A stretch of 64,000 nucleotides of DNA, from NCBI GenBank assembly GCA_963823335.1, contig CAWGLD010000001.1, positions 1,792,001 through 1,856,000 of the forward strand, written 5' to 3'. The position numbers were made by a program, and so were the translations under genes. Of the stretch, positions 21,948 through 63,431 are shown in pieces. The stretch comes from an uncultured delta proteobacterium (GTDB lineage: Bacteria > Desulfobacterota > Desulfobacteria > Desulfobacterales > B30-G6). Numbering within the stretch: position 1 is the stretch's first letter; the number at the start of each line of letters is the position of its first letter. The notes beneath the pieces are model-generated. The model saw nothing but the letters and a program-made list of their open reading frames with translations, made no database searches and was not told the origin of the DNA.

Positions 21948-22085
21948 CAGCGGCCGAATTCTCCGTGGCTTGCCGTGAGGAATCTTCAATTCTCCGCTTG
22001 ATAAGTTAACAGGTGCGAATATATTTCCAGAAATTATCAGAAGAAGACTTGACTCGAAAAATGAATTGGTATATTGGCATTTTCG

Positions 22086-22215
22086 TTGATTGTTCTACAA
22101 ATCGCGTGCTCGGCACGCGGTTCCGAACCTGAACTTACGGAGACGCGCTGTCTCCTTTGTCTTTCCCCCATTTTGGGGGAAATCCAAGCCACCCGTTTCA
22201 CGGGTGGTAGTTGAT
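22086..22215. mobile_element. Dispersed four-hairpin element, family A (IS200/IS605-end-like)
   Basis: About 130 bp; near-identical to 38828-38956 and 62970-63098. Confidence 0.75.
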
Positions 22216-22468: not shown

Positions 22469-22612
22469 CTGAACCGAAAAAGCGAGTGCTAACCCCGTAG
22501 GTTCTGCCGTTCGGCATTGCTTCGCATGCTGCAGGGTTAGCGAGCGAATCTAAAATAGACAGAATTCCTTACGGTGGAAGATTCCTCGTAGCTTGCTGCG
22601 AGGTTCTTCAAT
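22469..22612 (-). mobile_element. Family B element, inverted copy
   Basis: Reverse complement of 10654-10821, lacking one 26-bp insert. Confidence 0.7.
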
Positions 22613-22660
22613 TTCCCCTGGCCGGGTCGTATCAATGGCCAGGGGAAATCGGGTATCACT

Positions 22661-22927
22661 CATCCTTCTGATGTCCTTTGCGCCACGCGCGTCATTTGTC
22701 CGACCGGACGGCAGTTAGCCTTCGGCTGTCATCAGCATTTCATCCGATATTTTACCCTGCGGGCGTCATTACTTACGGCTGTCATTAATTCTTCGAATGT
22801 CATTATGCCTGCGGCTGATATCTGTGATAGGCGCGATATTCATTGTTACTAATGGCTGACAGCAACAATGAATGACACGAAGTAAATGACCATAAATGAC
22901 GCGGAGCAAATGACATTCGTTTGAAAT
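22661..22927. repeat. AATGAC / mini-hairpin array element (copy C)
   Basis: About nine ~18-nt units (hairpin + GTCATT-like linker), a central CATTGTT..GCTGACAGC..AACAATG core, then four oppositely oriented AATGAC units. Confidence 0.7.
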
Positions 22928-38783: not shown

Positions 38784-38827
38784 TGTGTTTATTGTGCCTG
38801 TTGGGTTACCTGAGATAGGGGGTGGAT

Positions 38828-38956
38828 TTGATTGTTCTACAAACCGCGTGCTTGGCACGCGGTTCCGAACCTGAACTTACGGAGACGTGCCGTCTCCTTT
38901 GTTTTTCCCCATTTTGGGGGAAATCCAAGCCACCCGTTTCACGGGTGGTAGTTGAC
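38828..38956. mobile_element. Family A element
   Basis: 129 bp, TTGATTGTTCTAC...CCACCCGTTTCACGGGTGGTAGTTGAC. Confidence 0.75.
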
Positions 38957-39144
38957 TACCGTTACCGTATCCATTCCGTCAAGGGATTTTTTATTGTATC
39001 TGATATTTGTCTTGACCAGCTAATTGTCGTTCCATATGTTTATAAAATCGTTGCACGATTTTATCGGAAAGGACGGCGTCGCTATTTTAATCAAAAGAAG
39101 TCCTCGTTGCTTGCTGCGAGGTTCTTCAAACGGATATATAAAGC

Positions 39145-40083
39145 ATGGGTAATGTTGATCAAAATCAAGCGCAAAGACAGACGAATGACTCAGTACTGCC
39201 GGACAGGGTCAGGATCATGGAGGTGGGCCCCAGGGATGGGTTGCAGTTCGAGAAAAAGATTCTTCCCACTTCACTGAAAGTCGATCTCATCACGGATCTT
39301 GTGGCGGCGGGATTGAAGGAGATTCAGGTGGCTGCTTTTGTAAATCCAGGCATCGTTCCACAAATGGCGGATGCAGATATGCTGGTGGCGCAGCTGCCGA
39401 AACAGCCAGGGGTTGTTTACAACGGGCTGGCCCTGAATGTCAAAGGAGTGGAACGTGTGGCTGCCGCTGGCTTGAAATCTATTGAGGTTTCTATGTCGGC
39501 CAGTGAGGCGCACAGCCGCAGGAACGTCAACATGACAATCAAAGAATCTGCGGCCCAGGTCGACGAGATGATACGTCTTTCTAAAGAACTGGGCCTGGCC
39601 GTCCGTGCAGGAATCCAGTGTGCCTTCGGGTACCCGGGTGAAGAATCTGTGCCCTTTGAACGAATTCGGCGTATCGTGGAACACTATATGAAACATGACA
39701 TCGAGGTTCTGAACCTGGGCGATACCACAGGCATGGCGGATCCGGGTAAAATCCATGCCTTCATGGAAAAAATGCGCCCGCTGGTGGGTGATCTGGATCT
39801 GGCACTTCACCTTCACGACACAAGGGGGCTGGGGTTGGATAATGTCCAGACGGCGATGAAATACGGGATTCGGCGCTTTGATGCCTCCCTGGCCGGTATG
39901 GGGGGCTGTCCGTTCGTGCCTGGAGCCGCCGGAAATGTCGCCACGGAAGACCTGGTCAACTTTTTGCACACCAGTCATGTCGAAACTGGTGTAGATATAA
40001 GAAAACTGGCGCGATGTTCCCGGAGAATGGAAGCTTTTTTCGAGAAACGATTTTCTGGCAGAATGCATCGATTGATGCTATAA
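39145..40083 (+). CDS. Hydroxymethylglutaryl-CoA lyase
   Basis: EVGPRDGLQ, HLHDTRG, GGCPFVPGAAGNVATED. Confidence 0.92.
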   Translation: MGNVDQNQAQRQTNDSVLPDRVRIMEVGPRDGLQFEKKILPTSLKVDLITDLVAAGLKEIQVAAFVNPGIVPQMADADMLVAQLPKQPGVVYNGLALNVKGVERVAAAGLKSIEVSMSASEAHSRRNVNMTIKESAAQVDEMIRLSKELGLAVRAGIQCAFGYPGEESVPFERIRRIVEHYMKHDIEVLNLGDTTGMADPGKIHAFMEKMRPLVGDLDLALHLHDTRGLGLDNVQTAMKYGIRRFDASLAGMGGCPFVPGAAGNVATEDLVNFLHTSHVETGVDIRKLARCSRRMEAFFEKRFSGRMHRLML

Positions 40084-40087
40084 ATGA

Positions 40088-40616
40088 AGGGTTCGAGGGT
40101 CTGAGGGTGATATGAGGGTTGGAGGGTTGGAGGGTGATACAAGGGTTGGAGGGTGGCTGACAGGTACAAGCGGACAGCGGCATTCCAGCTTCAGAGCATC
40201 CTGGCGTCCCAGCGTAATAAAGGTTCGAGGGTCTGAGGGTGATACGAGGGTTGGAGGGTTGGAGGGTGATACAAGGGTTGGAGGGTGGCTGACAGGTACA
40301 AGCGGACAGCGGCATTCCAGCTTCAGAGCATCCTGGCGTCCCAGCGTAATAAAGGTTCGAGGGTCCGAGGGTGATACAAGGGTTGGAGGGTGGCTGACAG
40401 GTACAAGCGGACAGCGGCATTCCAGCTTCAGAGCATCCTGGCGTCCCAGCGTAATAAAGGTTCGAGGGTCTGAGGGTGATACAAGGGTTGGAGGGTGGCT
40501 GACAGGTACAAGCGGACAGCGGCATTCCAGCTTCAGAGCATCCTGGCGTCCCAGCGTAATAAAGGTTCGAGGGTCTGAGGGTGATATGAGGGTTGGGTTC
40601 GAGGGTGATAAAAGGG
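40088..40616 (+). repeat. G-rich tandem repeat: four identical ~67-bp cores separated by GAGGGT-based 9-mer tracts
   Basis: Core GGCTGACAGG...CCAGCGTAATAAA starts at 40155, 40287, 40392 and 40497 (periods 132, 105, 105). Confidence 0.95.
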
Positions 40617-40629
40617 ATAAGAAGAGTAA

Positions 40630-40751
40630 GTCATTTACTTCGTGTAATTCATTGTAGCTGTTAGCTATAGGCAACAAGAAATGACGCGCGTAGCGCTAAT
40701 GTCGTCCGATAGGACAAATGACGCACGAAGTGCAGATGACATCCGAAGGAT
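40630..40751. repeat. AATGAC / mini-hairpin array element (copy A)
   Basis: AATGAC GCGC-GTA-GCGC, AATGTC GTCC-GATA-GGAC, AATGAC GCAC-GAA-GTGC, GATGAC ATCC-GAA-GGAT. Confidence 0.75.
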
Positions 40752-40757
40752 TGAGGT

Positions 40758-41309
40758 ATGCAGGAAATACGATTTCACGGGCGTGGGGGACAGGGGACAG
40801 TGGTGGCGGCGATTCTGCTGGCAAAGGCTTTTTTTCAAGCCGGGTTTCATGTCCAGTCTTTCCCTTCGTTTGGTGTGGAGCGGCGCGGTGCCCCGGTGGA
40901 AGCATACCTTAGAATCGGCTCAGAAAAAATTCTGGCGCGAACCACCATCACAACACCCCATCATATCCTGGTTCAGGATAGTCGTCTGATGAAAAGTGTA
41001 GCAGTCACCCAAGGCATGCAGCCGGGTGGCTGGGTGCTGCTGAATACACCGGCAGGCGCTGATTTCAGCCACCTGTTTTCAGACTTTCGCCTGGCATCCA
41101 TCGATGCAACCCGGATTGCCATGGAAAACGATCTGGGTACGCGGACCCATCCCATGGTCAACACGGCCATGATCGGTGCTTTTGCACGGATTCTGGAAGT
41201 GCCGCCCATCGATAGTGTCATGGATGTTATAAAGGCGGATATTTCCGTAGAGCCGGAAAAGAATGCCCAGGCCGCCTTAAAGGCCTTCGATACCGTAATT
41301 TTTTTTTAA
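40758..41309 (+). CDS. 2-oxoacid:acceptor oxidoreductase gamma subunit
   Basis: EIRFHGRGGQG, FGVERRGAP, NTAMIGA. Confidence 0.93.
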   Translation: MQEIRFHGRGGQGTVVAAILLAKAFFQAGFHVQSFPSFGVERRGAPVEAYLRIGSEKILARTTITTPHHILVQDSRLMKSVAVTQGMQPGGWVLLNTPAGADFSHLFSDFRLASIDATRIAMENDLGTRTHPMVNTAMIGAFARILEVPPIDSVMDVIKADISVEPEKNAQAALKAFDTVIFF

Positions 41310-62090: not shown

Positions 62091-62237
62091 ATGATATTCA
62101 GCCTTCGGCTGTCATATACACTTCGTGTGACATTCGTCCTTCGGACGTCATTAGCGCTTCGCGCGTAATTTATTGTTGCCGATAGCTGACAGCTACCCAC
62201 CAACCCTCGTATCACCCTTGTACCACCCTCCAACCCT
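62091..62237 (-). repeat. AATGAC / mini-hairpin array element (copy B) with attached GAGGGT tract
   Basis: Minus strand reads AAGGGTTGGAGGGTGG...GAGGGTTGGTGGG TAGCTGTCAGCTATCGGCAACAATA, then four 18-nt linker+hairpin units. Confidence 0.75.
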
Positions 62238-62939: not shown

Positions 62940-62969
62940 GGTTTTTTCCCAACAGGGTTCGAGAGACAT

Positions 62970-63098
62970 TTGATTGTTCTACAAACCGCGTGCTTGGCAC
63001 GCGGTTCCGAACCTGAACTTACGGAGACATGCCGTCTCCTTTGTTTTTCCCCATTTTGGGGGAAATCCAAGCCACCCGTTTCACGGGTGGTAGCTGAC
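62970..63098. mobile_element. Family A element
   Basis: 129 bp, near-identical to 38828-38956. Confidence 0.75.
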
Positions 63099-63431
63099 TG
63101 ATGGCAATGGAACAATGGATTCTCGCATGGAGACCGTTAGATTAAAATACATGCTTTTCAGGTGTGGGTCAATCTCTTGGACAGACATGACTGTTTGCTT
63201 TATCTGGGGGTAGCCACGCCTTTTTTATTTTAGGGAATCCGCACCACAATTCATAGGGAAGTCATTGCCTATATTAAAAGGGAAGAAAAAATTCGAGTTC
63301 GTAACTATTTGAAACAATTGAGTTTGAAAAAAAAATGGCTATGTCGCATGGATTTTGCATGACAAATTACACGAATGACCATAAATGATCTGCTGCGACA
63401 GGTATTGCATATAAGGGGGTTGAATATACCA

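Follow-up and report, generated by a model that had tools for sequence, protein, structure and literature searches.

Three places in the 64,000-nt stretch of DNA analysed here (the window), which belongs to an uncultured Desulfobacterales sediment bacterium (genome G000; 11 contigs, 4.37 Mb), carry short tandem arrays in which a nearly constant hexanucleotide, AATGAC, alternates with a small hairpin of variable stem. They raise the question of whether such an array is a repeat-spacer memory, the target of an enzyme that acts on single-stranded DNA (ssDNA), an RNA leader, or a dispersed repeat. The initial annotation had taken them for a repeat-spacer-like element joined to G-rich tracts, and its description of copies A, B, and C was matched here in both sequence and layout. 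We found that the array family is real, structured, covarying, and multi-copy. Taking all of the evidence together, we lean towards reading the arrays as a dispersed, non-coding mosaic repeat, REP/SRM-like but a distinct structured minisatellite, that forms a spacer before the downstream cistron.

Array A (40680–40751, plus strand) consists of four units of 18 or 19 nt, AATGAC GCGC-GTA-GCGC, AATGTC GTCC-GATA-GGAC, AATGAC GCAC-GAA-GTGC, and GATGAC ATCC-GAA-GGAT. Array B (62100–62170, minus strand) lies in a convergent gene gap and also has four units, with the hairpins GCGC-GAA, GTCC-GAA, ACAC-GAA-GTGT, and AGCC-GAA-GGCT. Copy C (22662–22914, minus strand) ends in a partly decayed, interrupted array (22840–22662). 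Genome-wide, 47 arrays of 2–8 units each passed our filter, giving 202 units in all. In a unit of 18 nt, the tag (AATGAC, AATGTC, or AATTAC) is followed by a G+C-rich stem of 4 bp that closes on a GNA loop. The tag AATGAC was exact in 101 of the 202 units, the remainder being one-base variants; GNA triloops were present in 156 units (GAA 94, GCA 43, GTA 15, and GGA 4), and the closing pair was C-G in 185. The top hexamers before hairpins with a 4-bp stem and a G..A loop in the whole genome (n = 5547 hairpins) were likewise AATGAC (69), AATGTC (40), and AATTAC (23). A loose one-unit pattern, allowing one mismatch, was not enriched across the window (70 matches vs 63.3 ± 7.2 expected), and its matches concentrated at sites A, B, and C.

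The stems of these units are paired far beyond expectation. Watson-Crick pairs occupied 757 of 808 stem positions, compared with 456 ± 11 (maximum 496) when the 3′ arms were shuffled in 2000 rounds. The stems fall into at least 13 recurring unit types (13 distinct when perfectly paired) with the preferred order GCGC, GTCC, GCAC, ATCC or AGCC, and GCCT. For a covariation alignment, 29 array starts were picked by their tags alone, with no pairing rule. In this alignment, 90.8% of the cells were paired vs 68.6 ± 1.4% in shuffled alignments, none of 500 of which reached the observed value; changes on both sides were seen in 12 of 12 pairs, and slid controls were 18–40% paired. The covariation of the stems suggested by the initial annotation was therefore significant in a larger alignment, in which the array starts are paralogues, so that part of the covariation reflects exchange of unit types and not in-place change.

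Further copies were found outside the window: the genome has about 47 arrays in all, and its relatives carry arrays too. Of the 9 other genomes in the genus, 8 contained a two-unit pattern, as did 2 of 4 in a sister genus and 0 of 26 other families of the order, and the reversed pattern, used as a control, matched nowhere. At the orthologous gap of locus A, five species (G005, G004, G006, G007, and G000) carry an array that abuts the same gene; it holds 3 to about 8 units, of which the last is kept, and the modules upstream have been swapped. No array was found in this gap in two more distant species. At locus B, four species (G000, G005, G006, and G007) retain both end units and have different inner ones, and two species carry other elements in place of the array. 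The ACAC/GTGT stem of array B is GCAC/GTGC in the orthologous units of G006 and G007, which makes it a true compensatory double change. Thus one of the two compensatory changes proposed earlier (GCAC/GTGC to ACAC/GTGT) stood; the other, ATCC vs AGCC, proved to be a pair of recurrent unit types at non-orthologous loci with no in-place change. At locus C, the unit order was common to three species (G000, G002, and G005). A relative within the genus (L136, 1947–3047) carries a 1.1-kb array made of 20.4 copies of a 54-nt three-unit block (GCGC-GCA, GTCC-GCA, and GCAC-AAA) with 96% matches. These comparisons showed vertical inheritance of the arrays at orthologous gaps in part of the genus, with whole units being lost, gained, or duplicated in tandem. 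Lack of covariation, a match to a known repeat family, and absence of further copies had been named as grounds for abandoning the proposal of a new element, and none of the three was found outright. Rfam gave no match at gathering thresholds in the whole 64-kb window, and no published description of the AATGAC mini-hairpin family was found in the literature searched, subscription journals and supplements being outside its scope.

The arrays are oriented with respect to genes. When genes were called genome-wide (3822 genes), the strand bearing the GNA loops was the sense strand of 33 arrays in co-directional gaps and the antisense strand of 4 (p = 1e-6); 7 arrays lay in divergent gaps and 3 in convergent gaps (array B and two others). 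In 24 of 40 arrays, the end of the array was no more than 30 nt from the next start codon. GC skew was clear on contig C1, and the GNA loops fell on the G-rich strand in 20 cases and on the opposite one in 27. The 33:4 sense bias and the 20 vs 27 split by skew indicate that the arrays are polarised along transcription rather than along replication, and a fold on ssDNA exposed by replication is therefore disfavoured. Assembled contigs from four RNA-library runs cover the core and array A, and three of them (X1, X2, and X3) bridge into the gene, which weakly supports transcription of array A into its gene; gaps in the depth of these contigs have no significance. The 40 downstream genes have diverse metabolic or housekeeping functions, including four acyl-CoA dehydrogenases and two carboxyltransferases, and no mobile-element protein was found among them. 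A regulon reading was rejected because of this functional diversity, and capture of the Shine-Dalgarno position by the last unit was rejected as a general rule since it applied to only about 8 of 40 arrays.

The unit loops obey the rule of hyperstable DNA mini-hairpins, as had been proposed for them: their C-GNA-G tip is identical to that of d(GCGNAGC) and d(GCGNNAGC), and the short units of the left modules read GCGAAGC and ACGAAGT. According to the accessible part of a review of these hairpins (PMC13037366), d(GCGAAGC) has a melting temperature of 76.5 °C, compared with 39 °C for r(GCGAAAGC), and a fragment that carries two mini-hairpin sequences in a row is poorly bound by SSB. Because of this difference in melting temperature and the poor SSB binding, the loops argue for folding as DNA. 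The same part of the review covers single motifs (phage origins, ssiA, and N4 promoters) and not tagged genomic arrays. On the AATGAC strand, G.T wobbles exceeded A.C mismatches in the relatives (52 vs 22 in 339 units; p = 6e-4) and in this genome (16 vs 8). This excess fits folding of the AATGAC strand alone. We argue from these data that the loops point to DNA and that position and orientation point to a transcription-linked setting.

The G-rich tracts turned out to be a separate module. Upstream of the array proper, the usual order was optional G-rich or GGTTTTA words, optional inverted short units, and AGCT-type heptamers. G-rich words of the GAGGGT type occurred upstream of 22 of the 47 arrays, GGTTTTA words upstream of 13, and one or two inverted short units (GTCATTTGCTTCGCGTCATT and GTCATTTACTTCGTGTCATT, with up to three mismatches) in 14; the core end resembled CAACAATA in 39. 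Conversely, 160 G-word arrays were found genome-wide, only 16 of which were then followed by an AATGAC array. They were sense in 101 and antisense in 10 co-directional gaps and started a median of 14 nt past the upstream stop codon. The joining of hairpin arrays to G-rich tracts as a fixed part of one element, as initially described, was thus not borne out; two separate modules share gene gaps, with G-rich words at gene ends and hairpin arrays at gene starts. The runs GGG-N4-5-GGG, as in the G-word arrays, fit the usual G-quadruplex motif. The left inverted module, checked as a possible terminal inverted repeat, was confined to the 14 arrays mentioned above and pairs with unit 3 in copy A, and no target-site duplication was seen by eye in the array listing, no systematic test having been made.

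The design of the units is not restricted to the order. In a collection of species-representative genomes, a generic two-unit pattern matched at least 110 stretches. Among the matches listed were Desulfobacterales and deltaproteobacterial metagenome-assembled genomes (MAGs), eight loci of one Calditrichia MAG, and many MAGs of Bacteroidales, Bacteroidia, Chitinophagales, and Saprospiraceae. The loci in other phyla agree in tag, in 4-bp stems, and in the ranking of loops (GAA > GCA > GTA), and have inverted GTCATT arrays on the left. In viral contigs, only nine stretches had the two-unit pattern.

A consistently linked enzyme was sought among Y1_Tnp, small GIY-YIG, and four-helix-bundle genes, and none was found; reverse transcriptases and primase-polymerases were not searched for. 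The Y1_Tnp HUH and small GIY-YIG genes, which had been put forward as possible partners, were not associated with the arrays. Y1_Tnp (PF01797) was present in 16 of 16 genomes searched, array-free ones included. G000 has eight matches, mostly open frames of about 330–450 aa; these loci include C7:406024-406998, C1:782459-783493, C4:394753-395736, and C4:263291-264334. None of the eight was flanked by units: the contigs of two of them contained no unit at all, and for the others the distance to the nearest unit was 7 kb or more. Among 18 Y1_Tnp loci from five genomes of other phyla, none had true units and one had a chance-like match. For small GIY-YIG genes in the genus, 18 of 28 matches were scanned, ten UvrC-size frames being left out, and no unit lay closer than about 1.5 kb to any of these 18 loci; of the 22 matches in four genomes from other phyla, 15 were scanned, and none of the 15 loci had units. 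Cassettes of the four-helix-bundle (23S rRNA intervening-sequence) protein were rejected as carriers, since only 1 of 20 genes lay within 2 kb of a unit, with about 5% expected by chance. One truncated open reading frame of this family (L177, G000 C2:42049-45246) is preceded by GGATTCCA word repeats and lies directly upstream of the only small GIY-YIG gene of the genome (122 aa).

Small GIY-YIG nucleases of the Ssn kind have hairpin targets of their own, NTS and SRM, with which the arrays could be confused. The published SRM pattern, HGTCWYN(0-2)YYVSBRHN(0-5)WNVSBRGN(0-2)RNCYNB, had 29 matches in the genome, none of them in or near the 47 arrays, and was not enriched (13 matches on C1 vs 8–12 in 5 shuffles); it also had no match in six array-bearing loci of other genomes, which include other phyla and the giant array. 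Canonical Ssn motifs like the Neisseria NTS (GTCATTCCCGCGAAGGCGGGAATCC) were present in all ten genus genomes. They flank small GIY-YIG genes on both sides in G002 (L189) and G004 (L190) and on one side in G008 (L185), and their copy number (G002 38, G008 18, G004 13, and G000 7) tracks the ssn-bearing genomes. The seven copies in G000 lie at C1:1728785, C4:370810, C6:202467, and four more positions, and no GIY-YIG gene flanked by such motifs was found in that genome. Array-pattern counts do not follow the small GIY-YIG genes in this comparison of ten genomes that are kin and in part incomplete: G005, with a count of 25, has only a UvrC-type GIY-YIG match, G001, with 0, has two small GIY-YIG genes, and the count in G008 is 1. 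Because the SRM pattern, the flanking genes, and the copy numbers all fail to match, we conclude that the arrays are a family distinct from the genuine Ssn targets with which they coexist in the genus.

With these data, the rival explanations can be weighed. The alternation of constant linkers with variable segments at a fixed period had suggested a CRISPR-like repeat-spacer memory with hairpins as acquired sequences, which we now regard as close to impossible. The repeated use of the same stems across many loci refutes it: CRISPR spacers are unique and at least 26 nt long, and the variable parts here are self-complementary 11-nt hairpins of at least 13 recurring stems, which are ordered, inherited, and subject to minisatellite-like change. 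The roughly 47 arrays are dispersed beside unrelated genes and grow by block duplication, and no cas gene or associated gene set was seen among the 40 downstream genes, a dedicated cas search not having been made. In unit size and 18-nt tandem layout, the arrays also do not resemble integron attC sites, as we take these to be built. REP/REPIN-like elements moved by a Y1 HUH transposase (RAYT or TnpA of IS200/IS605) that recognises ssDNA hairpins would account for hairpin units that bear a constant tag at their flank within a BIME-like mosaic, for the left inverted module that pairs with an array unit, and for the eight Y1_Tnp matches. As far as the accessible part of PMC3733652 describes them, REP and BIME sequences share with the arrays short tagged palindromes, mosaic intergenic clusters, and plausible transcription, and the reverse complement of array tag and stem often reads CGTC, only if the stem starts with G. 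REP units are, however, 20–40 bp long, bear GTAG or CGTC tags, and lie mostly downstream of genes (PMC3733652), and the array units measure 17–18 nt (hairpins of 11–12 nt), lie mostly just upstream of genes, and flank no RAYT. CGTC elements form head-to-head dimers, head-to-tail dimers being called negligible there (PMC3733652), and the arrays run head-to-tail, not as inverted pairs, without lagging-strand bias. Together with the presence of Y1_Tnp in array-free genomes and its distance from units, this makes movement by such a transposase very improbable.

Two further rivals place the arrays on either side of the DNA-RNA divide. The arrays may be targets of an Ssn-kind ssDNA nuclease (single-domain GIY-YIG, cd10448) or a related trans-acting enzyme that reads the GTCATT tag and hairpin, as at NTS/SRM, and modulates recombination or ssDNA uptake. 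Several features are shared, going by the accessible part of PMC11893778: both have a GTCAT(T) word beside a G+C-rich hairpin with a purine-rich loop, orientation given by the word, and many intergenic copies clustered around genes in several phyla, with ssDNA-type folding implied. CGTCATT, the reverse complement of the tag and first stem base, is the conserved 5′ part of NTS, CGTCATTCCCGCG..., and SsnA cleavage does not need a particular loop sequence (PMC11893778). That the array hairpins obey ssDNA stability rules, that the unit design crosses phyla, as SRMs do, and that true Ssn modules occur in the genus also speak for such an enzyme. However, array stems have 4 bp as opposed to the 7–8 bp of NTS, units stand head-to-tail every 18 nt, and tag and purine loop are on opposite strands relative to NTS. 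All arrays are missed by the SRM pattern, no ssn gene is flanked by units, and the NTS-like copies track the ssn-bearing genomes and the arrays do not; this explanation therefore appears doubtful to us. The other rival sees the array as an RNA element under selection within the downstream gene's leader, acting as a 5′ stabiliser or processing barrier, a protein platform, or a buffer of access to the ribosome-binding site. The sense bias, the ends near start codons, the RNA-library contigs joining array A to its gene, and the G.T excess on the sense strand are all in keeping with it, as are the retention of the gene-proximal unit at locus A, where GAAGGA or GGAGG stands 8–9 nt from the ATG in five species, and the GAAGG of the last unit at Shine-Dalgarno distance in the few arrays noted above. 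There is also an analogue in the TAACTGA repeats of Beggiatoaceae, for which a similar mode of action has been suggested and which are forward-oriented just before start codons of unrelated genes (PMC4679880, accessible part). Yet sister species vary freely in unit number and order, the downstream genes have no common function, and three arrays are found where genes converge. The loops are of the GNA triloop type that is optimal for DNA, not of the GNRA or UNCG tetraloop type; the sense bias weakens in relatives and has no clear direction in other phyla; and Rfam had no match. We consider a selected RNA leader a tentative possibility, on the unlikely side.

Two published tandem repeats also resemble the arrays in part, judging from the accessible parts of the respective papers. 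The TAACTGA heptamers of Beggiatoaceae, Cyanobacteria, and some Bacteroidetes (PMC4679880) are also forward tandem intergenic repeats a few nt before start codons, with whole-unit indels between strains and a patchy cross-phylum spread without known mechanism, but they have a 7-nt period, another word, no predicted hairpin, and no covarying stems. The BrickBuilt miniature inverted-repeat transposable element of Porphyromonas gingivalis (PMC4596501) shares a variable-copy minisatellite (1 to about 23 units per locus) between a conserved leader and tail, always intergenic; it differs in its 23-nt unit, which is not described as a hairpin, its restriction to one species, and its defined terminal inverted repeats. 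The main text of that paper contains 'GTCAT' once and 'ATGAC' never.

Under the preferred reading, a structured minisatellite that forms a spacer before the downstream cistron, the arrays would gain and lose length through slippage or unequal recombination, both among units and among dispersed copies. The AATGAC strand, once single-stranded, would fold into the hairpins, either as non-template DNA during transcription or in the mRNA leader; selection on this fold or repair templated by the hairpins may maintain stem pairing. The arrays of this genome would act as, or be tolerated only as, a structured spacer 5′ of the downstream cistron, with the separate G-rich word module taking the 3′ side of the upstream cistron, and unit turnover would require no dedicated enzyme. 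Several points weigh against this reading. The sense bias fell to 30:13 in the loci of related MAGs, where 10 arrays lay at locus edges; the loci of Calditrichia and Bacteroidota showed no clear sense bias in a crude test based on open reading frames; and array B stands in a convergent gap, not at a gene start. The gene positions come from a simple in-house dicodon caller, and the RNA contigs carry no strand information, allow for DNA carry-over, and come without a silent control stretch. Strand-biased deamination could explain part of the G.T excess, and the RNA-leader half is the weaker one, since the GNA triloop is an optimum for DNA but not for RNA. Finally, that Calditrichia and Bacteroidota have the same design is difficult to account for unless a trans-acting factor is shared or the design has spread horizontally. 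It is mainly because the same tag recurs across phyla that an enzyme-driven reading is kept alive. Its fullest form, which we rate as rather improbable, is that the arrays are the DNA half of a multi-phylum system whose enzyme reads the tag and hyperstable C-GNA-G hairpin when transcription exposes the non-template strand that carries them; this enzyme could be a divergent Ssn-like nuclease that acts in trans and seeds or remodels arrays at gene starts.

If enzyme-read arrays of this kind exist, they would be to transcription what the replication-coupled REP/RAYT and IS200 systems are to replication. If the arrays are as widespread as the matches suggest, they would be a common intergenic feature ignored by annotation in Desulfobacterales, Calditrichia, and several Bacteroidota lineages, and a natural case of the rules of hyperstable DNA mini-hairpins shaping genomes. 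Their transcription-linked polarity, with G-words after stops and arrays before starts, offers a handle on the question of whether REP-like repeats are selfish, structural, or regulatory, and separating them from the coexisting Ssn/SRM system averts a tempting mis-assignment.

The surroundings of the three copies in the window are as follows. In copy A, the plus-strand core (40650–40679) consists of AGCT-type heptamer words and ends in GCAACAAGA, the family consensus ending in ...CAACAATA. It is preceded by the left inverted module GTCATTTACTTCGTGTAATT (40630–40649, plus strand), a shortened inverted copy of the GCAC-type unit. After the array, a TGAGGT spacer leads into the downstream gene (40752–41309, plus strand; ATG at 40758), which encodes a gamma-type protein of pyruvate/2-oxoacid:ferredoxin oxidoreductase (Pfam PF01558, E = 2.3e-32). 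A scan of 39900–40900 found no sigma-70 promoter, and the lone terminator-like match there is unit 3 read on the minus strand. When copy A was folded, the left module paired with unit 3, and the folding energy was moderately better than that of shuffled sequences (z = −2.3 as DNA, −2.8 as RNA, and −2.8 for the minus strand as DNA), values that do not discriminate between the strands. Upstream of 40629, the contigs of the four RNA-library runs diverge from the window. Their long overhangs (X2 and X5) read AGAAAAAGTCATTTGCTACGCGTCATTAAT and the short ones (X1 and X3) are the last letters of it; this variant corresponds to a strain in which a full second left module replaces the end of the G-word repeat of the window. 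The gene-end module itself (40087–40620, plus strand) begins 4 nt past the stop of the upstream gene (39145–40083) and has its GAGGGT-type G-rich words inside tandem repeats, namely five copies of a 105/132-nt unit made of G-rich words and GGCTGACAGGTACAAGCGGACAGCGGCATTCCAGCTTCAGAGCATCCTGGCGTCCCAGCGTAATAAA. Pieces of this unit recur across the genome and its relatives with 72–93% identity.

On the minus strand, copy B comprises G-rich words (62196–62237) that begin right after the upstream stop codon and a core (62195–62171), the two together spanning 62171–62237. Copy C has two left inverted modules (22914–22871) and a core (22870–22841). Directly after array C, at about 22600–22655 on the minus strand, lies a hairpin of the form GATTTCCCCTGGCC...GGCCAGGGGAAA that is kept in seven genus genomes, whether the array is present or not, and is a candidate small RNA, attenuator, or terminator. 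Two more dispersed repeat families of about 130–145 nt occur in the window, at 22084–22215, 38826–38957, and 62968–63099 and also at about 22470–22614; both have dozens of copies with 90–97% identity in this genome and its relatives.

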